A DNA stretch of 64,000 bases from Amoebophrya sp. A120 (Eukaryota > Protista > Dinoflagellata). Each line of letters begins with the position of its first letter. Position 1 is the stretch's first letter. The translations under genes and the position numbers were made by a program. This document shows, in pieces, positions 24,201 through 59,171 of the stretch. Under the pieces are notes generated by a model. It was not told the origin of the DNA. It saw only the letters and a program-made list of their open reading frames with translations, and searched no databases. Location: positions 10,771,655-10,835,654 of the forward strand of contig CAJINV010000004.1 in NCBI GenBank assembly GCA_905178155.1, written 5' to 3'.

Positions 24201-27200
24201 ATGAGGAAGGAGTTGTAGTTTTCCACGCCATACGCCGGGGCACACTTTCAGCAAGGCACAGCTGGCCACCGATGGAGGCGGTTGCTGGAAAATCGCCACG
24301 AAGGACCTGCGTGCCTTCTACCTAGAGGACGTGCCACCGCAATTTGGTGCGCAGCTGCAGGAGGCCTTTCGCAAATTCGCGAACGCTGCCTACGGTCCGG
24401 CAAGCCTGGTATCCAATTGAAAACGTCAAGGGTTGAAAACGTCTGCTCGGAGGACTTCGAATTCTTTCATATGGTCAGCAAGTTTCTAGCTTTGTATGAT
24501 ACGACTAGCAAATGCAACCAGAGTGAAGCAAAAAGATCTTCTTTGAATCTCCATCGCATCTTTTGACGTGGATAAGTATGCGCTTTTTATCTCTTGGCTC
24601 CTTTGAAATCTATCTGGTGGTGGTTTTCGTCCATTTATCAGTTACAGCAAGAACACGCCAGTAGGGTATAGACATCACATTTGTTGGAACTAGGCAAAAA
24701 TGTCCTGCAAACTTGAAAGAGCATGCCATGCGCATTCCCTCGTCCATGACTGAATTGGATTCACTTTTGCATGTAAGTCGATATAAATCGACCACTTGGA
24801 TGCAAGTACAACTTACAAATAAAATGTGAAGAGACCCCGCCGGCCGCGTTTTTCTGTGAGAGACGCATTTTGTTTTCACCAAGACGGACGAAGGGACAGA
24901 CGATTAAACCGCGTTTTCAATTTGATGTCTCTTCGCGTTCGCGCACTGCAACGGCGGCCTCGGCGCTACCGCCGGTTTATGAAGTGGAAAGAATTTAGCT
25001 CTCGCTCTGCCACAGTTCTATGTATGTTTTTCGTTTTTTCTTCCGGGATACGATCTCCAAGCGAAAGGTACTAAACTTGCTCACTGGGCGGGCAAGTTTT
25101 TTTTTTTCAGATTCGCTGACGCAGGGCAGGGAAGAAAACGAAAAAGAGATTGATGATTATTAATTTACCCACTGAGGTGGACGACGAGGGCAAGGTTTTT
25201 CCTAGGATTTGCGGGGACAAGTATCGGCGACGGGGCGACCAAGGATGGCTGGCATTTGTACGACCCCCTGGCGGAATATGGTATACTTTAGTTATAATTT
25301 TTTCAAAAGCAAATGCAAAGGTTAAGAAAGGTCCGGATCGATAATGGTCATTATTTTTTCTTTATCTTTTGCAGTACCTACTTAGCTCTAGCCAGCGATA
25401 AAGTAAGAATGTAATAAATTCCAGGTCGCATGTTATCCTCCGTGATATAATCGTCCCCACGACCACCACGACCCGCTGCAAATTAGGTACGAGGAAGATG
25501 AAAAAAACTCTGCTTGGCAAGAAGCTCTGTGAGTTAGCATGGTTTGTAGCGGCATATATAATATCAAATAAAGCTCGACTTGGCTTAGGCTTTCTTCTTT
25601 ACTCTGGTTTTCTAATGCTATGCAGGTCGGGTGTTGTCGTGGTAAGGTCGTTTTTTCACAGGATGCGTGGGCATCGATATGACGGAGGGGCCGGGCGACT
25701 CACCCTGGCGGCTGTATGCCCTGCAAAAGCAATACATACTTGATGCGGGCGGCTTTGGAGTGCCGGAATGGCATAAAAGAGAAAAGCAACCATGTATAGA
25801 GATCTGTCATTTTGCATTTCTTGTGGCTCATTCGAGCGAATCGCAAGAGGTCTGGAGGTTTTGCGAGAAGACAGAAATATGCATGCCCGAGGGGAATTTC
25901 TGGAAAGAAGCAGCAGGCTTTTACGCTCGCCAGTAGCGGCAGTTCTGCTTCTGCAGACCAAGACCGCGATAATTAAACTGGCTTCCAGCACGACCCAGCA
26001 TTCATCCATCGTGCCTTGCAGATCCAGATTCACCTTACGATGAGAATGAGAAACGTCAATATCATATCGCACGGCCAGTTCAGAAGGAGTATCCGCTATA
26101 ATCATAGCCCAGATTCTTCTACTTGAGTTTCTTTTACGTTTAACTGCAAACCCAATCAACATCCGGTATTGTGCTAATTTGCAATGTATCAAACGCAAAT
26201 AGGTGTGTTGGAAGAATGCAGATAATTGATACTTCTCATGGTGCAGGTTTTGAATCTGCCAAATAAAGGCCTGAAATGCACACATCAGAGCAGCACAAAT
26301 TCTACGGAGGCTTTGCCATGCGCTGTCTGCGTGAGAAGAAATGCCCCCTCCTGGAAGCAAAGAGCGCATTTCTTTTGCCGTGCCGGCTATGCAAGACAGA
26401 CTTTATTTGCCTATTCCAGAATCCGCCATCACAAGTTCGCATTCTTCCAAACCCAGAAATCTTTGCAATCCATACAATGCATAGGAGGTCGAGCGTGAAT
26501 AAGAGCTACCAGCTCTGCGAGAGCTACCCGCAATGGCTGGTGGTGCCCAAGTATCCTGTGCAAGAGTTCGATATCGTGCTCGCGGTACTCATCTGTGTCT
26601 GTCCGATGCAGCATCTTCACCGATTATTGCCTTTTTGCAAGAAGGTTAGGCTTGACAAGTCGCATTTTACTTATTAATTTGTTCTTCGATTCCGAGAATA
26701 GAAAGTTGTAGTAGAGCTGCCAGTTGTTTACGTTTAGTTGTTCTACGTAGCGAGAAAGCACTGCTCGATAAGTATTTCTTTTGCACTGCATACCACGCGA
26801 GTATCGGACCCGGTGCTGCTGGCGGTGAGTAACTACCGCAAGAAGAAGCGGATCCCCTCTCTGAGCTGGTGCGGGGTATTCAAGAAAAAAACATTGTAGG
26901 TGTAACTTTTTTGGAGGAACAGCATTACAAATTTGTCTGGCATGACAGCAGAAACATGTCATGCGCAGATAGTACGTGAAAACGCCCTGTAATGGACCCT
27001 ACGATGCATGCCAAGCATGACAGACGCAATCACTTTGCATGTTGCGCATCACAAATTTACACCAACAACGTTTTTTTCTTAGATACGGCGGCCCCGCGCT
27101 GCACTACGCCTGCGTGTTCCGCTCCTCGCAGCCATGCGACGGGCTTTGGGGCAACAGTTCCGAGGCGGACGAACGCCTCCTCCGGGAAATTGCGACGGGG

Positions 27201-30200
27201 AAACAGATATCCGCAGCAAAAGCAAAACTAACGTATTACTCATGGTGCGCCTCCACAATAAAGCTGCACAAGAAACTGAAACGAAGAAAGTAAGTAATTT
27301 AGATAAGTATTAGACTAGAAGAAAAAAATTAAAATTTCACAAAATTTTTACCGAGAAGACATGCCCCTGTCACAGAACAATATGGGCATGCAGGTGCATG
27401 AAACTGTAGACGATATCAGACCTGCAGACCCACTCATCTGCACGACTTTCTATGTGAGTACCTGTGCACAAACATGATATGGCTACCGTGTGTCTCCGCG
27501 CGTCGATGGTTTTGCGCTGGATAGCCAAATATCAAATGCAAATATGTCTGGGTCTGGAAGGATGCAAGGTTTGTCATGCACATTTTGCATGACTCCTGAT
27601 GTCTGTGATGCATGCCCTAGCATTAAATATTTCGTGAGGGCTTTCTGATGCCTAGACCGCATGAGAAATGCCCCCTCACCGTGGCAAAATCTGGACCGCT
27701 TTTGCTGCTCATGCAATACAGATTTTTGTAGAATCCAAATGCAGCATCACAAGTTGCATCCTTCCAGACCCAGACATATTTGCAATGCATACCAAATGGC
27801 CTCTCCAAGCCGCTCTTCGTCCTGGATCTTCGTACGCACAAATCCGCTTTGGGAAACAAGGCCGGGGGCGGCGGGTAAGAAACCATGAAGCAGCGAATAT
27901 TATTGCACTATATTCTTCTCTTCCTTGCGATCGCTTTACCTTTACTTCAAAGTACTTAATACGATGCCATGAAGTGTATTTTCGCACTAGGTTGATGCAC
28001 AAGTGAGTAAAAATCTTTCCGGTTTGTTGTTTGACAAGTACGCATTACATTTAGTATAGCTATAGCTATAGTCGTCTGGTTTAGAAGTCTCGACGACGGC
28101 ACTGGTGTAGTAACTTGTGATCGCTACAGGTATGAGGACTACTCCTTTTGTCAGCTGGAGTTCGCGTATCAGAGTGCCCAACTCCCCCTCCCTGTCCTTA
28201 TTTGTCGCGCAAACAGCGAATCCAGATCAAGTCTTTGCATTGTTCGCATGGCAGGCTCGGACCGCCAGAAGAGTGCTGCAACCTTGTGTAAATTCGTCTT
28301 GCAAATGCAAATAATAAACCTGCTCTCTTGCCGACGCTTGTTCCATTCCTGTGGATGCCCTTCTATAAATAAATCAGAGGGAGGGGCAGTTGTGCACTTC
28401 CATATCGAGGGGATTCCGAACATACACGCAGTCCGAGACTCCTACGAGGTACGCAAGGGAAAAAAAGTGTGTACTTAATGACCTATGTTGTACTCATGCC
28501 ATGGTCGGAGAACGTCGCGGACGTCGATGCACGATTCCCGGCCGATTTTCAGCCTATGCACATTGCATGAGAAACTGAAATTATGCAAATTTTTGATATG
28601 ATTTGCCAGATAGATGTGAAGGAAAAGATGTATTTGACGTGAAGGAGAAAATCGTGCTGCGAGCGTGGTGCCCCTGTCGCGCTGGGGAGAATATAATTGC
28701 AGTCTTTTTCTTCGAAGACGGTGTACGTAGCTGTATCTGTATGTTGCTCGGTACTGCTGCAAAAGTGCAGAGTTAATAGAGGATGAACACGCTTTTTTCC
28801 CTTTGGATACGAGAAAATGGAGAAAGCGGTGTGTCGCATCGCCTACAACCAAGCGGGTTCCTGTATCATATCGAATACACGGGATACAAAACAAGTTGCA
28901 GATGAATCGATGATGTAGAAGTACTATGTATGTGAACCTTTTTGATGCTTTTTGCTTTTGCTGCAGAAGATGCTATTGTCTCGGAATGATGATAGATTAT
29001 GTTTCTTTTTCGGTCTCTGCGGACGCCTTGCGGATCACGATATGCACTGCAAACATGTAGTCTGGGCCTTGTGATGTGATGAATGAGTGAATGTGGACTT
29101 GTTGTGCGCTTACTGCGAATGGTTTCACGAGAACCCGTAACGCATGAAGGAGATAATAAAAAGCCACGCCTCCGCCACAACAATTGTCATCATTTAAAAC
29201 ACAGCTTGTCGTGCTGACGCGCAATTCGACTAGCTTCTGTTCAATGGGATACACGTTTAGAATATCGTGATCGTCCCGCCGAAGTAGAAGTGGGTATTGG
29301 TATGCGATGGAGTTGTTCTCCCGCGCTCATCTCGCAGGAAGTACGTACTATACTGGGATTGCAAGAATAGATGAAAATGTCGAGCACTCCATTTCCAGAG
29401 GGCAACCCGACGAAGACATGTTTGTAGTGCATATCTGATTTCCATTTCCGTATGATACTCGGGTACACCGACGTGGGAAACAGCCTGTGGTTTGAGAATC
29501 TCAGCCTGATCCTGCAAGCGGCCGCGAACGTTGCGTGGAAAATGCGGCAGAACCGGGCCTGTCTGGTGCACTGCAGCGACGGCTGGGTATGCATCAAAAA
29601 TATTGTAGCTCCAAGTCTGGATTTCGCTGACCACTAGCGGAGGATCAAAAAAAACACGTGCCTAATTATTAATTTTTATTAGTACATGATTTGGATTCAT
29701 GTGACAACGCGCAGCATCATCGAAGCATCAATTATGATCGTTATGATCGTTGCATTTTTTCCATTAGCAGCAGGGGCACCTAGTGTAGTTGTCATGACGG
29801 AACACGTAAGTACGTTTACGTAGCCACGTGGCTAGGAGGGTTTCAAGTCGTTTACCGTGGCTTCCTGAAGACGTGAAGACTAAATATACCCTGAATATTA
29901 AAACGGTAACAAGCCCGATGAATGCGACACGGAAATACAAAAGACTTGAATTACACTGGAGAAAAACGCAACTTCGGCACATAAATCTATGCAACAAGCA
30001 CCATGAAAGAGCCTCCTCCAAACCTTGAATTATTGAGCGATGAATTAGAATTCCAGACCTGGAGGACATATTTACACCTGATACGGGGACCGCACCGCGC
30101 AAAACACGACGTTGGCCATGCTCAGTCTCGACCCATTTTACCGCACGATCGAAGGTATGTTATTTGCTTGTGTACCTATAGGTGGGACTGGGAGAAAATT

Positions 30201-31730
30201 TTTAGCATTCAAGAACTATTCCTGCAGGAACATCATCTCTCCTAGTACTTCTCTTATGCGATATGATCAAAAATCGAGGGACAGCTCTGGTACTGCACAC
30301 GGCCGCTCCTGCACTACCTCCGTAATTGAGAATGACCACCTTTGCTTTATTACCGGACTCCTCTGCTGCCTCACAACAGGTTTCTGCGTGCTGATTCAGA
30401 AGGAGTGGTGTTCGTACGGACACCAGTTTAAGACGCGGCTGGCGACCAGCCAAAAAGCGACGGGAGAATACTCGCCGGTCTTTTTTCAGTGGCTGGACTG
30501 TGTGTACCAATTCGCGGTCCTGCAGCACCCCGAGCGCTTCGAGTTCAACGAGCAGCTACTGTATCATCTGCAAATGTGCCTGCTGAGTCGGCGCGGAAAT
30601 AAAGATATAAGTGTATACTGAGTTGTGATGCTAATTTTTGCATAAAAGATGAGTGGTCACTTGTACGGTATTTTCCCACGATTTATTGCAAAGTTTTTAA
30701 GTAGTCGTGTTTCGGACGACAACGAAATGGGCTCCCTGCAGCACGACATCAAAAGAAATCGCTACTTCCCTCCATGCAACACAGTAGATCTTGTTGCCCT
30801 TCAAATCTGCATGACAAGTCCGGACGCAGACAAATTTCCAATGCATATGCTGCTAGACCTTACTACCTTTGCCGTTTCGAATCAGTTTGGCACCTTCGTA
30901 TTCAAGAAGAAATGCTGTGTCCGCGTAACTTAAAAAAACCCACAACATGTTGATAAATTTGCCTTGTTACATACTGCATGATGACAGCGACCAAGAAAGC
31001 GGCTTCTTTTCGGGCGTAGCTAGTACGCGTGGATGAAGACAGAGAAAACGAAATACTTAAGTAGAAACTACATTTGTGAAAAGAGGCTGCTAATGATGTG
31101 ATCTGGCATCACGAGAAATGAGAACAAAGTCACACGTCACCCACACAGCTTTTTTCTTTCGATACTTTCTGGCTGACAACGAGTCTGAGTGCTGCTCGCG
31201 GTACTTGACGAAAACGAAAAGCGTGTGGACGCACGTATCAACTGCAGAAATGTCCTGTGGGTTTCTTGGAGTATTTCGTATTATTTCATGCCAGCACTCT
31301 CGCCCGGTCTCCTACATCGTGAGAAACGGACTTCAGTACGCCACCAGACATGACAAAGTGAAATTTTTTGAAGGGTCTCTACACGCCCACAATGCACAAG
31401 CACCGTGAAAAACAGAAAGCGCATTTTTGCTTGACAAACTACATAGCACTGTTGGTTCGCTTCGTGCCACACAGGCGACTAGAAGTGCATCATTCGGAAT
31501 GCGCAACACACACTTACTGCCATACCGAGACCCACGCATTTTTGCAATGCATAGCAGGTTCTGGAGAACAAAACCCGCTACCGGAACCCGCGCTTCCGGG
31601 CGAAAATCTCGCCGCACGGCGTCAACATCGGGGAGGATGCCGGTGCTACTACGCCACCTTCGCTGATGGCCGCACCTCCCTCCGCAACAAGCCGCACCCT
31701 CTCTGTCACGATCGATTACTTGCCTATCCA
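15224..31730 (+). CDS. Myotubularin-family phosphoinositide 3-phosphatase, many exons (3' end uncertain)
   Basis: PH-GRAM pieces (LLAGEQI, LTVTNYRL, SIPWG, IATKDLR), LFAF, VNKSYQLCESYP, RIPSLSW, RSSQP, IPNIHAVRDS, catalytic VHCSDGW|DRTAQ, DPFYRTIEG|F, KEW, SPVFFQWLDCVYQ, FEFNE, FGTFL, YRNP. Confidence 0.92.
15416..15733. mobile_element. Old TIR intron element
   Basis: TATCATTTGTAAAAACGTC / GACGGTTTTGCATAGGATA; flanks GACAC/GGTGC; removal with 5 nt keeps the frame (AGH|QLFG). Confidence 0.65.
16451..16821. mobile_element. Diverged family A intron element
   Basis: TATGCA..GTCTGGG..GTCTGGAA / TTCCAGCCCCAGAC..GTGTATA; flanks AAACA/AAGCA; PSN|SSSDNF in frame. Confidence 0.7.
17271..17438. mobile_element. 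Old TIR intron element
   Basis: TATCCCAGGAAAAAGT / ACTTTTTTCTTTTCATA; removal with 5 nt joins in frame to ORF 17380..18000. Confidence 0.55.
18723..18986. mobile_element. Family A intron element
   Basis: TATGGATTGCAAAAATGTCTGGGTCTGGAA / TTCCAGACCCAGACATTTTTACACTTGATA; TSD GGACG. Confidence 0.95.
19059..19309. mobile_element. Family A intron element
   Basis: Same TIRs; TSD CTGGA. Confidence 0.95.
20454..22969. repeat. Composite intronic insertion with three direct-repeat copies (20454-20513, 22034-22108, 22868-22969)
   Basis: Shared core CATTCTCCAGCTGCACGTTCCAAAACAAACATGAT; includes a segment identical to 48489-48579 and an antisense coiled-coil ORF remnant. Confidence 0.8.
23095..23490. 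mobile_element. Family A intron element whose right TIR is split by an insertion of about 135 bp
   Basis: TATGGATTGCAGATATGTCTGGG; TTCCAGACCCAG[...]CCAGACATATTTGCAATCCATA; flanks TGACA/CGAAA. Confidence 0.85.
23922..24160. mobile_element. PIF/Harbinger-like (Tourist-type) MITE, nearly all foldback
   Basis: About 95-bp near-perfect TIRs GAGCGGGGTAACAAATTC...; TAA on both sides. Confidence 0.88.
24410..24927. mobile_element. Old TIR intron element
   Basis: TATCCAATTGAAAACG / CGTTTTCAATTTGATG; flanks CCTGG/TCTCT; joins ASL|FAFAH. Confidence 0.75.
26187..26474. mobile_element. Family A element nested in the right end of another intron
   Basis: TATCAAACGCAAATAG / TTCCAAACCCAGAAATCTTTGCAATCCATA; TSD CAATG; host end TTTGCAATG|CATA. 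Confidence 0.85.
26552..26792. mobile_element. Family D intron element
   Basis: TATCCTGTGCAAGAG / CTTTTGCACTGCATA; flanks CCAAG/CCACG; LVVPK|RVSD. Confidence 0.85.
26877..27085. mobile_element. Family E intron element
   Basis: TATTCAAGAAAAAAACATTGTAGGTGTAA / TTACACCAACAACGTTTTTTTCTTAGATA; flanks CGGGG/CGGCG. Confidence 0.88.
27530..27791. mobile_element. Family A intron element (opposite orientation to the 18723 copy)
   Basis: Family A TIRs; TSD CCAAA; interior is the reverse complement of the 18723 copy. Confidence 0.95.
29588..30083. mobile_element. Diverged family A-like intron element splitting the phosphatase P-loop
   Basis: TATGCA..AAATATTGT..CTCCAAGTCTGGA / TCCAGACCTGGAGGACATATTTACACCTGATA; flanks CTGGG/CGGGG; HCSDGW|DRT. 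Confidence 0.88.
30155..30379 (+). other. Canonical GT-AG intron
   Basis: GAAG|GTATGT...ACAACAG|GTTTC restores YRTIEGFCVL. Confidence 0.9.
30899..31164. mobile_element. Family E-like intron element following a micro-exon of about 12 nt (30886-30897)
   Basis: TATTCAAGAAGAAATGCTGTGT / ACACAGCTTTTTTCTTTCGATA; flanks CTTCG/CTTTC; FGTF|LADNE. Confidence 0.8.
31236..31553. mobile_element. Diverged family A intron element that now has GT...CAG boundaries
   Basis: TATCAACTGCAGAAATGT / CATTTTTGCAATGCATA; flanks GCACG/GCAGG; VWTH|VLENK. Confidence 0.85.
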
Positions 31731-33074
31731 GTTCTATCCCACAGAAAAGTTGCTAGTGCAGCACGACCTTATCCGTTCACGTATGAGTATGCTCAGACAA
31801 ACAGAAAAATGAAAGAGCATGCTAATGCTATCACCTCGTGCTGGAGCGGCCTAACCAGGACCATGCTCCTGTATTTATTCAGCATCTCCTCGGCAAAAAT
31901 GCTGACAGATCCACTTTTTGCTTGTTTTCAACAGCATGCGCGGAGGTCGTGCACGATCATGTTGGTGTGCTACTAGCTTTTTTCTGGGTGATAAATTCTC
32001 ACAGGCACGGCTGAAACTGTGGGAGAAATTCTGGCTACGGTATCACCCACACCTGTGGCTGATGGACCGCTCAACATGATGCAGTGGATAGGTATTTTTC
32101 GATCGGACCACCGGTCCGGTTTGGGCTGCATAATTCCTTTATATAATTGTTCGTAAAAAGGATGCGACGCAGGTAGAAGTACCTGTAGCAAGGACCGCAT
32201 TCTCTCTACCGAATTCTCCCGATACACCCGTAGCTATGTAGACTTTTTTAACAAAAAGAAAAAACTCAAATAAAGATAAAGATGAACGCAAGATTGATTT
32301 GGAACCCCGACAGACGAGACCTTTTAACAAGTATCGCAAAAAAAGACGACACAGACACTGGCATTGAAACTGCTCCCATTCTTAGATATGATGTTGGATC
32401 ATTCATAGCGCTTGGCTTGCCTACGTCCGACACGTCTGTCATGAAGAAGGATGCTCTGATGTTCTGAATTTCTTATATAAGATAAGCGAACAGCTGCATG
32501 ACGACCACGACTTTTGTAAAAGCGCGATCATCAATGGAAATCTTGACAAACGTCGTGTGCAGCATGTATCTTTTTGCGGATCGAAGTTCAACGCAGTTTT
32601 GGTTTTGCAGCTTTTTCTTTATAGATACAACTTTCAGCCTAGAAGACACATGTAGGAGCCGGTGTGTAGGTGAGTTGCAACCACTTACCACGTAGCGCAT
32701 TGAAGACCATTGGCCCGCCGTACTAATCGTTCTTGTGCAGAAAGAACATGAATTTCGATAGAGTTCCAGTTCTACAAACAAAAGCACCGAGCTCCGCAAT
32801 AACTTCTTGAAATGATGGACTACTTTTGCTGGCTTGTACTCACTCCTGGTGATCTACGCAGGATCACAACTGTATCAGGATCATCTCCATATCTCTTCTT
32901 TGTTAATGCCAGGTTTTACGCCATACCTTAAAAGAGTTTTCGCTTTGTTTATTAGAAAACCGCGGCGCACGAGATCTTCATTTTACTCAGATCGATTTGC
33001 TATATTCTAGTGCTACCTCTGAAAGACCTCTTTGACGTTTTTGTTTTGAATTAGAGACGCACGCATCCTTTAAC

Positions 33075-36000
33075 ATGTCGCTGAGTAGCAACAAGCGCAG
33101 TCGGGAGGAGGCATTGCTTGAGGATGAGGACGTATGCGAAGAAAAAAGTGTTTTACGGATACTTACTTAATACACTCCTTACGGTTACGTCGTACAACTG
33201 TGTGTGTATGTTCTTGTCTTCACACAGTAGAGCACAGCAAACGCAAACCTGTCTTGCTGTTGCTGAATCTGCGAAAGAAAATGAGCGATAATTGCATCCA
33301 TAAAACACTTTTTCTCTTGGATACGCGGTGGGCGACGAGGAGGATGTTCTTGCTGGCGGGATTCCAGAGGACCTGCCCGACGAAATCGACGAAGAGGAGA
33401 TTCTGCGCATGCTGGCGCAGGCCGACGAAGTGGAGGTCGAGCAGCTGACGGCGCAGACACTCAAGAAGACCATCCTCACACTGGAGCGGAAACTTAAGGT
33501 GAACCAGGAGCTCCGCATATCGAATGCAAATATTCTGTCTGGGTCCATGATAATGCAAAGTTTGTTACGCAAGACATACTAGACGATGCCCCATTGACAA
33601 GCTTACACTCAACAATAGCTTGATGAGAAATAGGCATTACGTTTGGTAGTTATGCAAGACAGATCGCATCACAAGTTTGCACATTTCCAGACTAGTTTGC
33701 ACTGCATACCGCATTAAACACGCCGAGGACCCGGCCGCGTTCGCCGACAGCGAGATCGAGCTATATGACCTGGTCAAACGTTACAATCTCAAAGCGGGTG
33801 CAATAGAATCTGGGTTTTGTATTGCATGACGAGCATGACAGACTCGGACAGCCTTGCGCTTTCTGCAATACATGTTGCGGTTTGGAACTCCGGAACTTGT
33901 CATGCGCAATCCTATCAGAGTTGGCTAGATCATGCACTTCTTGCATCACATCAAAATCCAGACTCTATATGCAACCATTGAGATTGTAACGTGTGAGCGA
34001 GTCATACGCTAAACGAGCAGATTCTGAAGTTGCGGGAGCTGTCGACCGCCCCGGAACTGTACGCCACGTTCCTGGAGTTGAAGGGCCTGCAGCTGCTGCT
34101 CAAGTGCATGGCGCACGTGAACACGGACATCGGGCTCTGCGTGCTGGATGTGCTCAATGCGCTCACGGAAACCGACAACTTTTCGGCCCCGCTCGCGGCA
34201 AATAATGAGCCGCCCAAGAACCTGCAGAACGGCGGGTCGTCCTCCTCCTCAAAGCCGCAGGAGACGGCGACCGACAGCCTCGAGGTGGGAGAGAAGTTTG
34301 TGGACGCGCTGGTCAAGGCAAATGTGGGCGAGATGGTCGTGGAGATGCTGTTACTCATTGCAAACGTAGGGGGATCTTGGTCCTTGTTGGACAATTTTGC
34401 ATGTACGAAGTTGTAGTAGTCACTACTAGCATGTATTGCAAAAGTTTGTGCTGCACTACTAGTGCAGCACAAATTTTTGCATAAGAGGACCTACTGGGAC
34501 TTGCATGTGCTATTGCAGGAGTCGAGAATAAGTAGAAAGAGTCACTTGACCTTGCCGATGAACTTGTCTTGCTGGTGTGTCGCAAGTTGCACGACGCCGA
34601 TACTTTTGCACAGGATAGCGGTTCAGGGTCGACGAAGCACAATCAGAGGAAGACGCTAAGGGAATAACTGACGCCTTCGGCTTATGGAAGTGTCACCAGA
34701 ATCGAAATTGACAAAATCGAAAAACTTGTGATGCACAAAATCGATGCCAATTAGACCCACAGTTTGTAGTCGGCGCATGACAAATTCTCCTCGTCCTGGA
34801 AGCGAATTTGTCATGCGGTTTAGGGCAAAAGAGCTGCCTTCTGTCATACTAGTCAGCAGCCCAACACCTAACCCTTACCAGGACTACAATCGGCCTTCCT
34901 TGCATCCTCTGCAATAGAGTCGCTTTTTGCGTAGCATTTTATGCATTACAGATCATTTCGATTTTGTCGATTTCGCTCCTGACACTCCCATACGGTTTCA
35001 TCGAAAACCTCGTAGAAATAAAACCAGACGCCATTGCCGTGTTTGCTAAGGTACTATACGTACTTACTACTCTAGGACCCTTTGTTGTGGACGCGGGAAG
35101 TGCTTCGTAATTTTCCGTTGCTCTACTTTCTTGTATTTTTCTCATACTGTAGTTGTACGAGTACTAGTAGCACCAAGGCCACGGACGGTGTGTGACAAAC
35201 TGGGGCCAGCAGTCAGGGGCGTATTTGTACTTCTACTTTTTTTGGATAGAGATGCCTATTTGTATTTCGCACACTATCAGATCAAGAAGTTTCACACGTG
35301 GCTGCTGAAGCGTATGGATGTGTCAGAGTTGAAATCGACAAAGTTGAAATAATTTGTCATGCATAAAATGGATGCCAGTTGGAGCCCAGTTTTCAAGTGG
35401 CGCATGACAAATTTCGGTGGTCCCTAAATCCAGTCTGTCATTCTGTTTAGGCAAAGAAGAGCGATTTTCTCATGCTACTTTAGCAGCTCGAGCTGTAGCC
35501 CCAAACAGGCTTACAATCGGCCTCACTTGCCTGCGCTGCTGCACACGTGCCTCGGCTCGTGCATTTTATGCATTACAAATTATTTCAACTTTGACGATTT
35601 CAAACCTGGCGCTTCCATAAAGCGGCTCCGGTCCGAGAAAGTGGACCAGAATAAGGCGTACGCGAGCGAAATTCTCGCCATTGTATTGCAGAATAACACG
35701 GACGCGCTGGTATGGTTTTGGACAACTCGCCCACGACCCCCTCGTCCGCTTCATCAGCATGTAGACAAGCAGGGCCTATCGTGGTATTATCTTGGTGTCT
35801 ACTGTACGCTTTGGCAGTATAATTCGCATGACTAGTATTTGACAGGTGCTGTCGTGAAGCACTCCAAGCCGCAGGATGCTTGAGAATTGGCCAAGCAGCG
35901 GCTCCACCTCTTTGAACGTGGTCTGTATTACAGTAGACGCAGTTCAAATCAGGGGGGCGGGGAGTTGGCCACGATCATAACCGGACAACTTCGGCGATGG

Positions 36001-38812
36001 CGTGGAAAAGCTATTGAAGGGCATCGCCGTGTACCGTAAACGAGACCTAGAAGACAATGTGGAAATCGAATACGCGGAGAACATGTTCGACTGTCTATGT
36101 ATCCAAACTGCAACAAGAATTTGTCTGGGTCTAGTTTTCTGAAGAAATGAGCTTGAACTTCGTTTTCTTGCTTATATGCCCCTGCTACCTACATAGTTTG
36201 AAATTGAAGATAACGCTAGCAACGGATTCCAGACACCACCCAAGCGCGACATGCTTTTTTCGGCCTCATTCCGCTGTAACCATCGTAATGAGAAGATGAA
36301 AAAATGAGATGATGCGACTTTCTGTTTTTTGCCCGAATTGCTGTTGTACACCTCACCTGCTGCATGCATGTTGACAGAGTCGCCTCTAATATCTTCGTTG
36401 GAATGTTGTCGGCGCGAATTATATGTACAATATCTTAAACCCTAAACCCTAAATCTATATCAAATATAAAAAACGGGTAATTTTTGCATACTTTTGCATC
36501 GAGATGAAGATTTTCTTCCCACCCGACTGAGATCGATGTCTGTTGCAAAAATGCATACTTTGCCAGCTTTTGCTGCAGGCAAAACACCAGCAGGCTTTTT
36601 GCGATGCGCAGGGCGCCGAGCTCATGGTGCGAATCATGAACCGGGGCAGCTACGCGGCCAAACTTGCGGTCAAGCTGTGCGACATGGCCTGCCGGGGACA
36701 CAAGCAGAACTGTGACCTGTTCGTTATGGCGCTCTCAACTGTTACATTCTCAACTGTTACATGATTTGTCATGCAAAATTGCCTTGACTATCAACGCCAT
36801 CGAGCTGCTTCGCATGACAAATTCCCAGACGGCCAAAGAGGCTGAGAATCTGTGCCAAATCTGTCATGCAAGACGCGCAAGGTCCTTGCTTTCACTTTTA
36901 CCATTCTTGCATCACAAATTCATGTAACAGTTCAGAATGTAACGTTTGAGAACGCCATATTCGTGGAAAAACTCGGCCTCAAACCGCTGTTCGCCTTCTT
37001 CATGCGCAAGGGGCTCAAGAAAAAGGTAATATTTTGCTAGATCTAGATAGAAGAAAACGAATCATGCCTCGTCCCACTCGAACTATAAATAATAATACTC
37101 CAACCTTCTGCACCAGGAATCACTTTAGTGGTAGTGGTGCATTTATTAACGTCCCGTAATGATCTGTTCTACTTCTAAGTTGTTTCTGCGACGTCGGACC
37201 TGCAGAAGTAGCAGTAACAAAAATGAGAAGACTAATATGATGAATGCGCTGGCCCTAGTACTTCTAGGGTAAAGCGACATTCATTCTCTCGCACCACAAA
37301 ACGAAGTAGTTGTTCTAGCCGAGTCGTCTTATAGCCTACTCCACTCCACCGATTTCGATTCCGCAAGACTTGTCGTGGAAAAGTTAAAGTATATCACACT
37401 CCTCAAAAGGATTTCGCGGAGTCGGAGGAGTATATTCTCGGCTTGATCCACAGCATCTCGCGATGGTGCTCCGGAAATTGCCAGGCCCGGTTCTATCGCG
37501 CGGAAAACTCTTAGCCACGATTTCACAGTTCGCGCAATAAAGAATAATCATGATAGAAGTAGATTCATCATGTTGGTCTCAGCATGATTTGTTGATGTCA
37601 GATTTTCCGGTAACAATTTGACCGGATTAATCATTGAATATAAAAAAATGCCTCTGGTGTAGTAGGGCAGGACCAGCAGCTGTGCTGCGGAATAATTTGC
37701 AGGCACCCGAGTGCGCAATCACACTGCGCTGCCAAAATAAATCTGAGTGGTCCTGGTGCCACGCCTTGTCCTATGTATTGTATATTGATGAAAAGGCACG
37801 GTCGTGTGTGTCAATGCAATGTTGCTAGAAGCAGGCACAGGAAATGCTGCACATGCATTTGGTAGAGCCGAAATTTGAATTTGACTTTATTGGGGATGGT
37901 GGGGGGGGGCTACTTTTTTTCCTTGCATCGCTTGATGAATAAGTTTACGGAGAATGGGTTCGAAAAGCTGCAGCGACTGTTTGAAATTCACGTCGAATTT
38001 AGCCAGAGGCTCAAGTTGGCGGATGATCAGCGGCAGGAAGGCCGGCTACTCATTGCAGAGGAGATATCACAATGAACTTTTTTCATTTGTGCTCGCACGA
38101 CAGTGAGTCGTGCCACATTCCTCATCTCCAAGGAAATCAAGGAAATATATGAAAGTCTCGATCTCCTCCACTGTTGTATACGATACCAATGTTTTTTAAC
38201 GAAGACTTAACGAGGCTGCAAGAGGTAGAAGTGTGCTGTTTTTTTTTTATATGACTTCAAGCCCAAAGCCAAAAATTCGTGTTGAGCATGAGAAATGTGA
38301 CGCGCTTGCAATATTTTTGTGCCTGATAAGAAATGGAGCTCGACGCCGAGGACATTTATCTGGAAAGGTAGAGCAATGTCTTTTTTTATTCGATGTGGAA
38401 GTTTCCGATAAAACCAGATATTTCTCATCAAACAAGCACGATACACGATAGAAACATGAAAGTTGTGCTTGCGAAGATGACGCGGAATGAAAATCAAAAT
38501 TGAACTCTGTCCTTCATGCTACTTACGCATTCTCCGTTTTGATGCAGGTGTGACGACGGTCTGGCTACCTTGCAGCAAGCCGACCTGATCATCGTGCGAC
38601 TTGCCAACATGGGAAATCGGCAACTCGCAGAAGCGGTGCAGAGCCTGTTTGGCATCAAGGGCGTACCAAAGGAGGAATTCCGAGAGACGGTCGAGGAGTA
38701 CTGTTCCCACCTCGACGAAGAGCTGGGCGCAAAAGAGAAAAAAGAAGTGCTCCGCTACCTGAAAGAGGTGGTGCCCGTGACGAAACAAGCCGGTACTGCA
38801 AATAACGCGTGA
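33075..38812 (+). CDS. CTNNBL1: Beta-catenin-like protein 1 (Prp19/CDC5L spliceosomal complex), multi-exon
   Basis: NQELR|IKH..DP..F.DSE, APELY, HVNTDI, WLLKR|L, DQNKAYASEILAIVLQ, YAENMFDCLC, F|VEKLGLKPLF.FFM, RLMNKFTEN..EKLQRL, DDGLATLQ. Confidence 0.95.
33133..33323. mobile_element. TIR intron element
   Basis: TATGCGAAGAAAAAAGTGTTTTACGGAT / ATCCATAAAACACTTTTTCTCTTGGATA; flanks GGACG/CGCGG. Confidence 0.8.
33518..33708. mobile_element. Short diverged family A intron element
   Basis: TATCGAATGCAAA / TTTGCACTGCATA; TSD CCGCA; NQELR|IKH. Confidence 0.9.
33764..34006. mobile_element. Family C intron element
   Basis: TATGAC..ACGTTACAATCTCAA / TTGAGATTGTAACGT..GTCATA; flanks AGCTA/CGCTA. Confidence 0.9.
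34352..34617. mobile_element. Family D intron element (reverse orientation) with internal hairpin at 34437-34481
   Basis: Right end TACTTTTGCACAGGATA; flanks GCTGT/GCGGT; EML|FRVDE. Confidence 0.85.
34683..34992. mobile_element. Family B intron element
   Basis: TATGGAAGTGTCA / TGACACTCCCATA; flanks CGGCT/CGGTT; homologous to 35313 and 41658 copies. Confidence 0.92.
35051..35280 (+). other. Canonical GT-AG intron
   Basis: GCTAAG|GTACTA...TATCAG|ATCAAG, in frame. Confidence 0.85.
35313..35619. mobile_element. Family B intron element
   Basis: Long TIRs TATGGATGTGTCAGAGTTGAAATCG...; TSD AAGCG; WLLKR|LRSEK. Confidence 0.95.
35711..35979. mobile_element. TIR intron element
   Basis: TATGGTTTTGGACAACTC / GAGTTGGCCACGATCATA; flanks GCTGG/ACCGG; DAL|DNFGDG. 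Confidence 0.8.
36100..36557. mobile_element. Old TIR intron element
   Basis: TATCCAAACTGCAACA / TGTTGCAAAAATGCATA; flanks CTATG/CTTTG; DCLC|QLLL. Confidence 0.8.
36725..36959. mobile_element. TIR intron element (distinct family)
   Basis: About 50-bp TIRs TATGGCGCTCTCAAC / TTGAGAACGCCATA; TSD TTCGT; CDLF|VEKLG. Confidence 0.93.
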
Positions 38813-39614
38813 ATAAAAAAGAAACTTCTTGTTCCAGTTCCTGCTTTCCGTAAAAATAGCAATGGGCATCCTCGAGCTCGTTGTACTTGTAGCGACCACT
38901 ATCCTATCGTCCAGAGGACGGTATTATATTCGACTTGGAAAATCTCGCCGAACAACACGTTGTACTGACTTTGCGCAAGCGACTACGCGTACTGAAAAGA
39001 ATTGCAATGCGTACGGAACACGATAGTACTTGTTCCCTTCACTGTACTTCTTTCACCACCCTATTTGTTCCTCTAATTCTTCATGTTCGGTGTTGACTAC
39101 ATCCTTCATGTTAGCACGCCTAGATCTTGAAGAACAGAAAGTGTCATCATCTCATGGTCTTTGGTACTCTGGTCCGCCTTGACCTCCCCGTGCACTGTAG
39201 TACATCGTTACAAGTTTCATTTCGCGCCATCGTTGCACTATGGAATCATCATCAAAGATATCGTATGAAGCATCTCCGCCAGCGCCTTCGCCCCATGCGT
39301 ACTAAAAAATTTTGGCTTTCAATATGATAAAACTAAAATTCACGACGCATTAATGTGCTGTCCTCGTGAGATTGATCATCTCTCTCTTCAATACGTTTCG
39401 CTTTTTGGCCGGCTGCAAATAAGGTGAATGAAAAAGAAAATTAAATCAAAGTATTTTCACAACTACAGTTGCCGCTGTCCTCGATGAAGCAGTTGTTTTA
39501 TTTGACGATCTTATTTGCATCGGTAGGCAAAGACAAAGTATTTACGTATTGAATAGGTGCTAACTATAGGTTAACGCATTACTTACTTATTCCAATCGGA
39601 GAGAGTAGATTTCG

Positions 39615-42600
39615 ATGGCGGACTTCTTGATTCCTGCCCCTGCGACCGGGGCGGGTGAGCTGGACGACGAGGCACAAAACGGGCGGCGCGTGAACATTTT
39701 TCTACAAACAAATAACTACCACTGGCAGATGGCCCTGCCAACCGACCGCCTGGAGAGCCGGTACGAGAAGCTGGGGCACCCGATCGGCGAAGGCACGTAC
39801 GGAACGGTCTGGAAAGCGAGGCTGCGAACAACAGGACATCTTCCCCGGGCCCACCACGGCGGAAGGAGCAGAGAAGATGCAACTACAAGTAGGAGGTCCT
39901 TCGACGTCCTGCGCGGTCGCAAAGCAGAACAAGGGCACCAGCGACCTGGTGACGTGCACGAAGACCAGCCATCGCCGCAAAGCCGCCGGGTGGAAGACGC
40001 CGGGCAGCAGCTCCTGGGAACAGATCTTCACGAAGTTGTCCCAGAGGACGAGGAGAAAACTGGAACGGCCAACATGCAGCTTTCGTCGGATGATGATCAA
40101 GATGACGAGGTGGGCGGCGATGATGAAATGGTAAAAGAAGAGGAGGAGCACAGCGACGTGCAGGCCCACCAAGCGGAAGTTGTACAGAAAGCAGAAAATG
40201 ATCTTTCCCAGCGTCCAAAGACGAGCACCCTCGAACAACATCAAGAAGCCCGTGCAGGAGCCCGGACGGCAGCTTCGCAAGAGTTGCTGCCCGTAGAGGT
40301 GAAGCAACCAGAACATCAGCAGCAGGAGCAGGAGCAGCTCCCGAATGAACAAGGTGAAGCCCACACTGCGAGCACCATCAAAAGCGCCGTTGCTCCTGGT
40401 GTGGATTTGACTTTTACTGCGACATCAAAACAAGAAGACAAGCTCAAACCCACTACAACTGGAACTGCTCCTTCCAACCGCGAGCCGGATGAAGCGAAAT
40501 CATCATCTGCGAGGACGAGAATGGGCAGTTCTTTGTTCGCCATGAAAAAGGTGAACCTGCGCAACGAGAAAGAAGGCTTTCCGCTGTCCGCGATTCGCGA
40601 GATCCGGCTGCTGCAGCGGCTGGACCACCCGAACATCGTCCGGCTCAAGGATTTATCAAATGTAAAAATGTCTGGGTCTGGAAGATTGCGAGGTTTGTCA
40701 TGCTTGTCTGGCATGACCAAAAAGTTTGTGATGCGTGTCCAAGAAGAGATCCTTTTGCCTGTCATGCAAAAACGCATTTTGTCATGCGAAAAACGCAACA
40801 CAAAGAAGCGCAGATATTTCTCATGCTTGGCTGTGCATTACAGAGCATACACTATTCCCAACGCAGCATCACAAGTTTCCAGACCCAGACATTTTTACAT
40901 TTGATAGGATTTGGTCTGGTCCGAGCAGGAGAAGCAGAACCGGTGGAAGGGGGTGGTATGACCTGCTCAGTTACAATAGAATCTGGATTTTGTCTTGCAT
41001 GATAAGCATGACAGAATCGCAGAGCATTCCACTTTCTGCAATACAAATTTCGCTAGATTATAATTCTAGTGCGGTTTGGGGCTCCGAAGCTTGTGATGCG
41101 CCATCCTGTGGGAGTAGGGTACATCATGCACTTCTTGCATCACTAACGTTTGAGATTATAACACCTGAGCAGGTTATAGGTGGTGCACCTCGTTTTTGAG
41201 TTTGTCGAGCACGATTTGACGGGCTTGCTGCTGTACCGGAAGCGCATGGTCTCGCTACCGGAAGTGAAAAACATGGCGACGCAAATCCTGAGGGGATTAT
41301 CCTTCCTGCACGGCCGCTTCGTCGTGCACCGAGACCTAGGGATTGCAAAAATGTCTGGGTCTGGAAGAGTGCAAGACTTGTCATGCAGGTTTTCCATGAG
41401 CCAGGAGGTCTGGTATGAAGGACATAGCATGACAGATTTTGCGAGAGTTCTATCATGCCTATCCTGCATGAGAAACTGCCTCTCGATTAGGTCAAAAGTG
41501 GACAGCTCCTGGTAATCATGCAACACAGATTTTTACATGATTCAGATTTAGCATGACAAGATGTTTTGTTCCAGACCCAGACATTTTTGCATTTGATAAG
41601 ACCTCAAGCTGAGCAACATCCTGGTGACGAACGGTGGCGTACGGAATTGAAGCAGTCTATGGATGTGTCAGGTTTGAAATCGTCAAAGTTGAAATAGTTT
41701 GTCATGCATAAAACGGATACCAGTTAGACCTACAGTTTGTAGTCGGCGCATGACAAATTTTCCCGGTCCTGGAAGCGAGTCTGTCATGCGGTTTTGGGCA
41801 AAAGAGCTGCCTTCTGTCATGCTAGATAGCAGTCCAACTTTTGACCCTTACCAGGATGATAATCTGCCTCCCGTGGGTCCTCTGCAATAGATTCGCTTTT
41901 TGTGTCGCATTTTATGCATTACAAATTATTTCAACTTTGACGATTTCAAACCTGACGCTCCCATACAGTCGTCTCATGTGCGATCTTCCAGGTTTGGAAC
42001 CGATTCTGGTGTTGTACTACTTGCCACTTAAGTATTAGTTTGATCGCCGTAATAAAACTACAGTAAGATGAACGAGCACGCCTAAATTTTTTTGATCACC
42101 GAGCACGTAATGGAATTGTAAATCTGTTGCATGTTCTTCTTCTTGACAAGTGTTCTGCAAAGAGAAGTTCCAGGCTCAGACGTGTTTTTCTATTCCTCCA
42201 TACGATTGCCTCAAGCTTGCGGACTTCGGGCTCAGTCGGTACTTGGAGGATCCGGCGACGTGCCCAACCGCGGTGCTGCCCCCTCTCAGCGGTACAGCAG
42301 TCGCTGCTGCGGCTACCGGTAAAAATGCGGGCGCGATCTCGACGGGGACATCTCATGCTGAAGATGACGAAGCTGCAGTACATGACGCACCTGTTTTAAG
42401 TGTAACAACGCCTGGTGAGCAGAACGTTGCTGATAATAATTTATTTTCTAATACCGGCGAGGAGACCACATCAGCCGTTCACGTCCATCCCCGCCCGCGG
42501 AGCCGCACCATCGACACGCTGCTGCCCCAGCGCACGAACCGCGTGATTACACTCTGGTATCGACCGCCGGAGCTGCTGCTCGGTTGCAAGGTGTACGAAT

Positions 42601-44229
42601 ACGAGGTAGATGCTATTCCGGGTAGATCAAACGTGCCCATTTCGCGTTCAACAACGCACAGTCGTGAAGTCGTCCGTTGTAGTTCTACTACACAAATTGA
42701 TACCAATTTTTTATGGGCGGGGGTTTGGTTAAAGTTAACTAGCATCAAAACCAAAAACCGAATGGTTCTACTGCGAGTTAAAGTAGTAGTTGCGCATCAC
42801 AAGAAGATGAAGAAATTGGCTACAACTGCGCGCCGGAGGTGCAGCAGAGGTGCTTAGCACCATCTAGCATGGCCGTCACAGCGAGCTCGTAGTAGGGCAA
42901 GTTTGGCTTTCGTAAGCGTAGGGAGTTGGAAATAGCGTATCGTGCGCTTCTTCTACAAACTGCCACGAAACGTGATGCAGGTCGTTGTAGGAAAAATGCG
43001 CATCCCCCCGCCATTCCCATCTTGTACTTGAAACGCAAGTCTTCATCATGACAGACACTAGCGCACGTCGGTCTCGGTGTTCGTTATCATCTGGCGTCAA
43101 GACTAGGAAATAACTGGAGACGAGGATATTCGGCTCGTTTGCTTTACACTGGATACTCCTCTGGTCGGCCGGGTGCGTCATTGCGGAGCTACTGATCGGC
43201 CGACCACTGTTTCCGCTGGACAACGAAAAGAAGGTGTACCAAAAAATCAGCGAGTTCTGCGGGCACCCGAACCCCACGACGTGGCCCGATCTGTGGAACA
43301 AGCCGACAATGTACCCCTTGCGTGGCGAGTACCTGGTTGGTACGGGCGGGGGCTCTGGTGTGGGTTCTGCGTATTATCATGGCAGTTTTTACGGCGGGTC
43401 GTCGCGCAGCGGGACGGCCGCTGCAGTAGGTGGAAATTCGCAATATCACTACTTGGATCAGCAGAACAAGCACAACTACTACAACAGCAACCCACAGATG
43501 AATTATAAGAATCCTCAGCAGGGCGGTGGGTCTTCATCGAGTCGCAAGCGCTCCGCCTCCGATCGGGATATTGATTATCCTGGGAGAACAATAGGTGATC
43601 TTCGTGGGCCCCCGCCACCACCTTCAAAGGACGTCGATGCTGGCGGCTATGACCACCACCAGCCTAGTACAACTAGTCGACAAGCGAGAAAAAGAAAGCC
43701 CAACAAGTACAACTACTCCCTGTTTGACATGAATCCCCTGATTCTCGACGAAAACGGGCTGCCCGTGGTGCAGACGGGGGAAGAACAACCAGCAGACGGA
43801 GAGCAAAGCGACGCAATAAATCTGGAACCCGCCTATGACCTCGAAAGTAGAACTACCCGGGCGGACCAGAAATTCGTCGCGGAGCACGAAAACAGCAGCT
43901 CCCTGTTCCACCACAGCGAAGACTTCCAGAGTGAGGACGAAGAAACGCCGTTCGAGGAGTGCTTCGGCACCGCCAATGCGGTGAAGAGCCGTTTCATGGC
44001 GCAAATGCTCAGCATGGACCCGACCAAGCGGGAGGTCTGCGAAAGGATCCTGGACCACGAGTTTTTGCGCTCGCACCAACCTCTGCCCTGCAAAAACGAG
44101 GAAATCAAACTGAACAAATTCGTGCACTGCCACGAGCGGTCAGCAATCAAAATCAAGGAGAAAGAGAAGCGGCAGCGGGAAGCCCGCGAGGAGCTGGCGA
44201 GAAAGAGGCAACGTCGCTGGGAGCACTGA
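39615..44229 (+). CDS. Cyclin-dependent kinase, CDK9/CDK12/CDKC-like; six exons, about 915 aa with long low-complexity inserts
   Basis: IGEGTYGTV, AMKKV, EKEGFPLSAIRE, HPNIVRL, LVFEFVEHDLTG, HRD|LKLSN, LKLADFGL, TNRVITLWYRPPELLLG, WSAGC, PLPC; exon lengths sum to 2748 nt. Confidence 0.93.
40654..40906. mobile_element. Family A intron element
   Basis: Perfect family A TIRs; TSD GGATT. Confidence 0.95.
40957..41178. mobile_element. Family C intron element
   Basis: TATGACCTGCTCAG / CTGAGCAGGTTATA; TSD GGTGG. Confidence 0.92.
41337..41598. mobile_element. Family A intron element inside the kinase catalytic loop
   Basis: TAGGGATTGCAAAAATGTCTGGG / CCCAGACATTTTTGCATTTGATA; TSD AGACC; HRD|LK. Confidence 0.95.
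41640..42202. mobile_element. Old TIR intron hosting a nested family B element
   Basis: TACGGAATTGAA / TTCTATTCCTCCATA; joins TNGG|CLKLADFG. Confidence 0.7.
41658..41965. mobile_element. Family B element nested in an intron
   Basis: Family B TIRs; TSD CAGTC. Confidence 0.93.
42614..43155. mobile_element. Old TIR intron element
   Basis: TATTCCGGGTAGATCAAACG / CGTTTGCTTTACACTGGATA; flanks GATGC/CTCCT; EVD(V)WSAGC. Confidence 0.8.
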
Positions 44230-57400: not shown

Positions 57401-58794
57401 AGCACCACACCCACAGCCTGGTCGCGCCGCACGCACTCGCACTGCAGCTGCCGCACGCGAAGGCGCCGAGCCGTACCGTGCAGAGCCACTTGGCCCGATC
57501 GAGGTTGACGGGCGGGGGTGGGGCGTTCATGACTACAAGACCGAGCAATAGAGCCGCTTCGACTGTTGTTCATCCCGCTGCATCAGCAATATCCGCCGCG
57601 ACTGCGATGAATTACCCTGCTGTGAGTGCAACAGCACCCCTCTCCCCGCAGTCCGGCGTTCTGACGCCATCGAACCACCCCCCGTCGCTGTACCCGAGAA
57701 ACGACGCGCCGATTTTGATGCACCAGACGGGTGAACAAGCAGGCGCCTCGCCGTTTTTTGTGAATCAAACGCCGCTGGTGCCCATGGCGGCGAAGCAAGC
57801 GCTGCGGGGAAGTCTGGCGGGCGTGAACACGGCACGACGGGGGAGTCGAATTTCGACTGGCGGAGGAACTCCTGCCGCGTTCTTCGGTTCTGTGCGTGAC
57901 ATGTTTAGTTCCATGTTCTCCTTCACATCGACGTCACAGCAGCACCAAAGCCAAAGCTTGTGGTCACCACAAGAACATCTTCTCGGTGCTGGAGCTGGTG
58001 CAATGCAACTACCTCTACAATATCAGCCGGACGGAGCAGTTTTTGTTCCGCTGAAGACCAATCCGGACGCACTGGCGGGGGAGATGACGCGGATTTTTGA
58101 ACAGCAGCGGCAGCATGGGAACGACCTGTCGGCGAGGCTGACGCAAGCCGGCACACGCGCGGCGACCGCGAGTCTGCCCGCCAGTCCACGGGTGCGATTG
58201 GACGACATCGCGGGAGCGGTTTTCGGGAAGGGTAATAATGTAGTGGAGGAAGAAGGCGACGACGAAAGTAGAGAACGGGAAACCAGGGAGCAGAATGGCG
58301 CTTCCCAGTCTTCTTCTGAACAGTGCTCGTCCTCCAGCAGCTCCTCCGCATCAACCTGGCAAGAAGATACAGCAAGGGAAGATGAGGGTAAGAACAGGAA
58401 GAGAAACAAGAAAGCAAAGAGACCAGTAAAAACCGCCGGTCGTGGAGGTGCTAAAATCCAGGTTCCGCTACAAGCCGGAGCCTTCTCTAGTTCCGCTTCC
58501 ACTCAAAGACGAGCCTCGCCTTTCGTGCTGGCGGCGAAAAAAGGTAAAGGAGCTGCAGCAGCTTCGCAGAAAGAGAAAGAGAAAGTAAACACTAGGGCAG
58601 ACGAGTGGGAAAACTTGCACGCGGCAAACCACACCAAGAGCTTGCACGAAAAAAACTTCGTGCCGAAAATGTTTAAAGCAAGGCCTTCGCCGGAGGAACA
58701 TGCAAAAACGGTATTTGAAAGGAAGCTAGAGAAGGGCCTACTGGAGCTGGAAGAGAAAATGAGCCGAGCGCAGACGCTCTTAGGGAGGAAATAG
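45411..58794 (+). CDS. Large low-complexity protein (about 3324 aa) with an N-terminal FHA domain; exons about 45411-46746, 47031-48383, 51509-58794
   Basis: FHA-like motifs VSVGS..NDVVVRGLGVASHHC, VTVNG, LNLGDIVVLGS|SVFL; both junctions in frame; exon sum 9975 nt. Confidence 0.8.
46747..47025. mobile_element. Family A intron element
   Basis: Family A TIRs; TSD ATCCT. Confidence 0.95.
48489..48579. repeat. 91-bp exact copy of 21674-21764 (interspersed repeat), running into an assembly gap
   Basis: GATGCCCCTCGGCGCATC...GCTAATGCAA is identical at both loci. Confidence 0.92.
48580..48679. other. Assembly gap
   Basis: 100 N. Confidence 1.
48681..49320. repeat. Tandem array of about 73-bp units that degenerates rightward
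   Basis: TTCCAGTCCTA recurs at 48688, 48761, 48834, 48913 and 48986, then more loosely. Confidence 0.9.
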
Positions 58795-59171
58795 TTCTAG
58801 TAGTTTGTCGATGAAACTGTACGGACTATATACCCACTGGCTTTTTCGAGAAGTTCGGAATTTTCATCAAAAGCTGTTTCCTCGCCCAAAAAGGTTAGAT
58901 TTCTCGTACACCGACATATATTTCAACATTTTGGTACTAGAGATAATGCCCGCTGTGTATGATCTACTTAAGCATGTTGATGCTCGAGGAAATTTGCCGT
59001 TTCAAAATCAAACTTGTGCGTTTTTGCAGCCATTTGATCATGGCTTTTCTTGGAGTTGGAAAATGAAGTTTCAAAAGAAACAGCCCCTCTTGGAGGTTCG
59101 AAAAGCATTGGGTGCAGGAGGTGCACCAGATGTTCATCTCGTTGGATACTTTAGTGGAATCGGGTGAGTGT

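Follow-up and report, generated by a model that had tools for sequence, protein, structure and literature searches.

A fixed splice register at the inverted ends of introner introns in Amoebophrya sp. A120

We analyzed a 64,000-nucleotide (nt) stretch of the genome of the dinoflagellate Amoebophrya sp. A120 (contig CAJINV010000004.1, positions 10,771,655 to 10,835,654, forward strand; hereafter the window), in which three genes are interrupted by 45 introns that consist of repeated elements. These are the introner elements published for this strain (Farhat et al., 2021; PMC7789003): they have terminal inverted repeats that start with TAT and end in an A-run, they occur in repeated families, and they are removed from transcripts. 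All of the readable introns of this type in the window are spliced in a single register, N+TAT...ATA+NNNN, such that one nucleotide before the 5' inverted repeat and four nucleotides after the 3' inverted repeat leave with the intron. The cut therefore falls after position 4 of a 5-base pair (bp) target-site duplication (TSD), as the original prediction, made from the sequence alone, had proposed. What is new is a simple splice code for introns already known to be odd; as a description of the geometry in the window it is nearly certain, and the machinery that reads it we infer.

The register was read from complementary DNA (cDNA). Four sequencing runs were aligned to positions 23400-43399. Two of them (X1 and X2) consist of contigs from a single sample that is presumed to be RNA; these contigs lack the ordinary GT-AG introns and therefore behave as messenger RNA (mRNA). 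From the raw RNA in runs X9 and X10 came 66 and 3 reads, most of them partial and located at repeats, which provided no evidence. Fifteen of 60 joints were listed, comprising two repeat artefacts, three stemless GT-AG introns, eight single elements and two composite joints. Eleven element junctions were testable, namely the eight single joints, two read from contig pieces and half of one composite; the composite joint 27206/27795 was excluded because it requires a two-step parse. The rule fits all 11 of these readable element junctions and four of them permit no other cut, whereas a shift of −1 fits only 2 and a shift of +1 only 5. With each cut drawn from six TSD-compatible positions, the probability that one register would suit all 11 is about 5e-6. 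The register is kept even where the TSD is gone (0/5 at 42614). Unspliced contigs are also present in the same runs, and no other letters occur in the cDNA pieces listed.

The sequence contains every TSD copy, residue and junction coordinate that the original prediction cited, and several of its junctions were recovered. The predicted junction 24408/24932 is an unambiguous joint in contigs of both X1 and X2, and 42612/43160 is found as adjacent pieces of one X2 contig. At 34352, where the left copy was expected to supply TSD position 3, a cDNA piece reaches 34349, so that this position does come from the left copy. Junction 41638/42207, which takes position 5 from the right copy, is marked by a piece starting at 42207 in both runs and by a 239-nt gap in the record that equals the predicted exon sum. 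Use of position 5 from the left copy, varying register and retained bases, the contrary outcomes named beforehand, did not occur in the readable junctions. No cDNA joint was seen for 29586/30088, 30897/31169 and 31234/31558, which are based on the annotated A120 protein; W1000 at the first and L1099 at the second are also backed by two orthologues. The description of the elements needed two adjustments. Some of the "diverged" TSDs are hardly repeats (2/5 at 24410, 1/5 at 41640 and 0/5 at 42614), and the TAT...ATA ends are not universal, since the element at 24410 ends in ATG and those at 34352 and 41640 start with TAC.

The same register was obtained at the protein level. We spliced 51 introns, removing the 45 elements by the rule together with six GT-AG introns that had been put aside by eye as stemless before counting; two of the six (25280 and 30154) carry TAT at +2 and A at −7. 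The products reproduce the A120 database proteins P0001, P0005 and P0004 letter for letter, with exons at 100% identity. Only shift 0 suits 45/45 element introns, a shift of −1 suiting 35 and a shift of +1 suiting 34. The A120 annotation was derived from the same genome, and the test was therefore redone on the myotubularin-family gene with orthologues alone (P0002 from an Amoebophrya transcriptome and P0003 from strain A25). Of 62 residue changes induced by shifts, 31 were decided, all of them for the rule (four via a stop codon) and none against it, and 31 were uninformative; five junctions exclude −1 and five exclude +1. At 25713/26488 the orthologue residue L804 rules out leftward shifts. 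Arm complementarity computed without the end triplets is also highest in the rule register (0.62 versus 0.19-0.36).

We then asked which end bases are fixed. In the window, +2T, +3A and −7A are present in 45/45 elements, and +4T and −5A in 40/45. Ten changes were found at +4/−5 versus none at their pairing partners −7/+2, and the 20 window elements with a TSD match of at most 3/5 show the same pattern. A larger, independent sample came from a metagenome collection in which one arm motif occurs in about 400 stretches; 80 loci were listed, all from one assembly. The 80 loci of at least 1 kb (of 140) yielded 304 called elements, of which 165 were oriented by flank coding score, 20 had non-coding flanks, too small a number to act as a control, and 119 were unclassified; on the window all 18 calls made at the cut-off used were real elements, although the caller was trained on those elements. 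The idea of asymmetry was recorded ahead of its test on the 165 oriented elements, which have 13 changes at +4/−5 versus 2 at +2/−7 (p=0.007). Position +2 is U in 165/165 and +3 a purine in 163/165 of these elements, and both hold in 45/45 in the window. The usual substitution in the third pair is +4C, by which pairing is lost (nine cases in both sets); −7G, with which a wobble pair would be retained, was found a single time. All three changes at −6 are to C, so that A-pyrimidine is kept, and a pyrimidine follows A−7 in 45/45. Strand mutation bias fails to account for the pattern, since T changes to C at +4 and not at +2, and A to G at −5 with a single instance at −7. The end dinucleotides are otherwise free apart from U at +2, with 28 different end combinations among the 45 introns and GT-AG ends in only 3/45.

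These fixed bases, U+2 and A+3 together with A-pyrimidine near the 3' end, are the bases that a spliceosome would read, which favors a spliceosomal reading. In this reading, to which we give a probability of about 0.5, the spliceosome would recognize N-U-A as the donor, A−7 would be the candidate branch point, and the 3' cut would be set by its distance from A−7 and not by AG; the inverted ends would join the two signals and may replace the U1 small nuclear RNA (snRNA). The +2U and +3A contact U6 in known spliceosomes (PMC8283771). For A120, U2, U4, U5, U6 and nearly all spliceosome proteins have been reported and U1 was not found (PMC7789003), and other Amoebophrya strains have GT-AG introns and U1 (PMC12005148). 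A more specific version, which we hold only tentatively, is a spliceosome that lacks U1 and can do without both GU and AG: the 3' inverted repeat would hold the donor in cis and provide the branch point A−7, and a six-base ruler would set the 3' cut. If so, any TAT-ended element with a 5-bp TSD would be a perfect intron whatever its orientation or target site.

Several points weigh against the spliceosomal reading. The branch point at −7 is putative, neither a lariat nor a branch point having been observed; the usual U two bases before the branch A is absent (−9 is T in 15/45); the six-base spacing from A−7 to the 3' site appears shorter than in Giardia, where by our own reading of the consensus the A lies at −8; and AG, which helps to dock the 3' exon in known spliceosomes (PMC8283771), ends only 3/45 of the introns. 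The asymmetry rests on 25 substitutions, of which stricter orientation filters leave 9 versus 1 and 5 versus 1, and an asymmetric reading of bases could also be the work of a protein endonuclease. In addition, the cDNA evidence consists of contigs of one sample with 15 of 60 joints listed, and contigs hide minor registers.

The original prediction held that splice sites are measured from the base of the hairpin. The geometry it derived is right and a helping role for the stem is likely; measurement from the base finds partial support, and the fixed bases are not symmetric pairing partners. Taken without a spliceosome, this idea calls for a nuclease that sits on the terminal stem base and cuts 1 nt outside it on the 5' side and 4 nt outside it on the 3' side, followed by a ligase that joins the exons; such a mechanism has been proposed for the nonconventional introns of euglenids. 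We consider this less probable than the spliceosomal reading, although it accounts for the free end dinucleotides (except +2) and for the in-register end stem that folds in 32/44 element introns versus 0/6 stemless GT-AG introns. It is also in line with the finding that U1 was not detected in A120 (PMC7789003) and with Euglena, in which a stem-plus-spacer code needs pairing (PMC12501133) and introns leave as circles (PMC11282704). However, mismatched arm positions show no preference for G-U over A-C (47:37 in the window, p=0.33; 36:44 and 33:42 in related loci), the register stays unshifted although terminal pairs are frequently disrupted (ATT, ATC, TAC and TAG ends), and 7/11 cDNA-proven introns have no in-register end pair with a probability above 0.5, though whole-intron folding is crude. 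TSD identity is weakly related to arm complementarity (rho 0.27, p=0.08). The decay of the end triplets is asymmetric as well. A mechanism that reads the end bases agrees better with the data than one that measures structure alone.

The spliceosome might instead be guided by an adaptor protein that attaches to the arm motif of both ends (TAT, seven loose bases, A-run) and sets the two cuts, with the branch point elsewhere and A−7 a mere contact. Both arms are indeed conserved at positions 9-14, with a profile that does not depend on orientation, and a new protein subunit has been suggested (PMC7789003). A symmetric binder alone leaves the opposite drift of +4 and −5 unexplained, and the protein is purely hypothetical, none being known and no search for one having been made; we regard this arrangement as improbable. 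Least probable by far is that there is no fixed rule, and that variable cuts or RNA-editing repair with survival of frame-keeping products, or removal of elements from DNA, produced the observed junctions. The sites have been called variable, with possible editing at 4% of A120 intron borders (PMC7789003), and the contigs compared here come from runs presumed to be RNA. Equal-length shifts keep the frame, however, and decay of bad products therefore cannot pick one register; moreover, the cDNA pieces listed show no other letters, and the same contigs that lack element introns also lack ordinary GT-AG introns, with unspliced contigs in the same runs.

The elements have the features of miniature inverted-repeat transposable elements (MITEs), with terminal inverted repeats, a TSD of fixed length and a short non-coding body, most copies being 170-800 nt long. 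The TSD is 5 bp: 25/45 match at 4 or 5 positions and the sixth position is at chance (10/45). Young copies have perfect 5-bp repeats and inverted ends, and perfect TSDs were found in 138/165 related elements, a set that was selected for TSD match. The 140 related loci share no match of at least 330 nt with the window, which left no empty sites for comparison. The excess of G before TAT, cited in favor of a cut after position 4, proved weak (23/45 versus 19/45 in the exonic copy; 50 versus 47 of 165 elements in related loci). A register derived from a target preference for AG/G was rejected, as AG occupies TSD positions 3-4 only 9 and 10 times in the 165 elements, with G at position 5 in the 50 and 47 cases just given. 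With no such preference and with arms that look alike in both orientations in the related set, the elements therefore insert almost anywhere. The cut splits the TSD 4+1, and 1+4 equals the TSD length, so that an insertion is silent in mRNA. The elements probably arrived as non-autonomous DNA transposons, and the intronic TSD copy would have decayed afterwards. No cognate transposase is reported for A120 in PMC7789003; some A120 introners have been assigned to terminal inverted repeat transposons (PMC12130899).

Compared with the published account of A120 introners (PMC7789003), the elements are alike in being TAT-starting inverted repeats that end in an A-run, with short direct repeats at the border and non-canonical ends. 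The legend of its Figure 3 describes sites that are variable relative to the hairpin and an unknown border, and the paper gives direct repeats of 3-5 nt, whereas we find a single register, asymmetric conservation of the ends and a TSD of 5 bp that is split 4+1. Site variability was restated in a 2024 review (PMC11282704) and in PMC11453091. According to its legend, the A120 repeats in Figure S23 of PMC7789003 lie "1-5" nucleotides away from the splice sites, and that figure may already hold the offsets. Our literature search, which covered few subscription papers, turned up no publication that describes either a fixed register or a lariat in Amoebophrya. The top A120 splice classes are all NT-NN (PMC7789003), as the rule predicts. 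In strain A25 the classes are all TT-NN and the inverted repeats start with TTA (PMC7789003); together these suggest N-U-A in both strains, with an A25 stem that likely starts at +1 and with U+2 and A+3 unchanged from A120.

The nearest analogue with a working code is the nonconventional intron system of Euglena, N3-CDG...CH'G-N5-6/R (PMC12501133), which likewise has paired end motifs at fixed spacers, free end dinucleotides and direct repeats that blur the border. The Euglena spacers are 3 and 5-6, whereas those in A120 are 1 and 4 with a TAT/ATA motif and +2U kept, in an unrelated lineage; the Euglena purine rule does not hold here, as the first exon base (E+1) is C or T in 13/45. For diplonemids, RNase III, tRNA-type and spliceosomal routes are listed as open (PMC12621601). 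Spliceosomal introns of Giardia and other diplomonads (PMC6679479) resemble A120 introners in a VTATGTT donor with variable first base, a fixed branch-to-3' distance and internal pairing that brings the ends together, the donor and the fixed distance being a precedent for the spliceosomal reading; they differ in keeping AG and a full branch motif, in being few and in not being transposon copies. Fritillaria borealis (summarized in PMC11282704 and PMC13326754) has MITE-derived introns with terminal inverted repeats and TSDs that are removed by an adapted U2 spliceosome, but these prefer AG-AC and AG-AT ends and U1 is kept.

About two thirds of A120 introns are non-canonical, 29,850 are repeated introns, and their removal is described as an open question (PMC7789003). 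The fixed N-TAT...ATA-N4 code reduces the seemingly chaotic end dinucleotides to a single rule and should settle the borders of tens of thousands of A120 introns. The same code accounts for the way in which transposons could spread into coding DNA at no cost. The role of A−7 would distinguish a GU/AG-free spliceosome from a second, euglenid-like splicing system.

Table 1. Genes, introner introns and junctions in the window, with the evidence for each
Feature	Position	Strand	Evidence or remark
Myotubularin-family gene (PF06602)	15224..32079	+	32 introns, 29 of element type; rule-based splice gives P0001, 1205 amino acids (aa)
Beta-catenin-like gene (PF08216)	33075..38812	+	14 introns, 11 of element type; rule-based splice gives P0005, 572 aa
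CDK-like kinase gene (PF00069)	39615..44229	+	5 introns, all of element type; rule-based splice gives P0004, 915 aa
Introner intron G+TAT...ATG+TCTC (GT-TC), TSD 2/5	24409..24931	+	Unambiguous joint 24408/24932, X1 and X2
Introner intron T+TAT...ATT+TGCG (TT-CG), TSD 1/5	24977..25213	+	Unambiguous joint 24976/25214
Introner intron T+TAT...ATG+CGTG	25433..25669	+	Four letters between the sides of joint 25282/25668 match
Introner intron (GT-AG), second element 26187-26474 nested in 3' arm	25714..26487	+	Joint 25713/26488
Introner intron GT-AC	26551..26796	+	Joint 26550/26797
Introner intron GT-GC	26876..27089	+	Joint 26875/27090
Two tandem introner introns, 27207-27527 and 27529-27795	27207..27795	+	Joint 27206/27795, two-step product of the rule
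Introner intron GT-GA	28166..28408	+	Joint 28165/28409
Introner intron GT-GG within CSDGWDRT motif	29587..30087	+	Annotated protein and orthologues; not seen in cDNA
Introner intron GT-TT	30898..31168	+	Annotated protein and orthologues (L1099); not seen in cDNA
Introner intron, GT-AG ends, same register	31235..31557	+	Annotated protein; not seen in cDNA
Introner intron T+TAC...ATA+GCGG	34351..34621	+	cDNA piece end 34349; annotated protein
Junction	36098/36562		Rule-based protein splice
Introner intron C+TAT...ATC+GCTT	37493..37933	+	Joint 37490/37932, 2 sliding letters
Introner intron AT-AA	38064..38332	+	Joint 38063/38333
Introner intron G+TAC...ATA+CGAT, nested element 41658-41965	41639..42206	+	Piece start 42207 (X1, X2); 239-nt gap
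Introner intron C+TAT...ATA+CTCC, TSD 0/5	42613..43159	+	One X2 contig: 42612, then 43160 adjacent

The beta-catenin-like gene is one that we take to be CTNNBL1. A scan of the metagenome collection with the myotubularin alignment found no relative, and an Rfam scan of the window gave no match, hence no snRNA was found there. Together, the three Pfam-bearing genes carry 45 elements within some 8 kb of coding sequence, and a 7290-nt open frame at 51500-58800 has none; non-canonical introns have been reported to favor less conserved genes (PMC7789003).

Some of the introns are composite. An 8-nt exon (25425-25432) lies between a GT-AG intron and the element at 25433..25669 and accounts for the four extra letters of the cDNA joint. 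For the nested pair at 25714..26487, removal of the inner element by the rule restores the outer 3' arm, which suggests ordered, nested splicing; further nested copies were found at 29041-29433 and 41658-41965. The tandem pair at 27207..27795 would be separated by a 1-nt exon at 27528 and spliced in two steps, as its cDNA joint fits only when the rule is applied twice. Both ends of the intron at 37493..37933 also occur in unspliced contigs without differences.

A 2857-nt intron (20186-23042) has ends that fit the rule (G+TAG...ATA+CCGC) and encloses a large insertion in which one segment is repeated three times; part of the insertion recurs beside the N gap at 48490-48579. Intron 23515-24236 contains a 101-nt inverted repeat (23917-24165) that is 98% perfect. 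Four more elements with perfect 5-bp TSDs are located in other genes (46747-47025, 60499-60760, 62176-62327 and 62983-63127), and the doubled 3' end of the one at 62176-62327 may have been left behind by an inner copy that was later lost.

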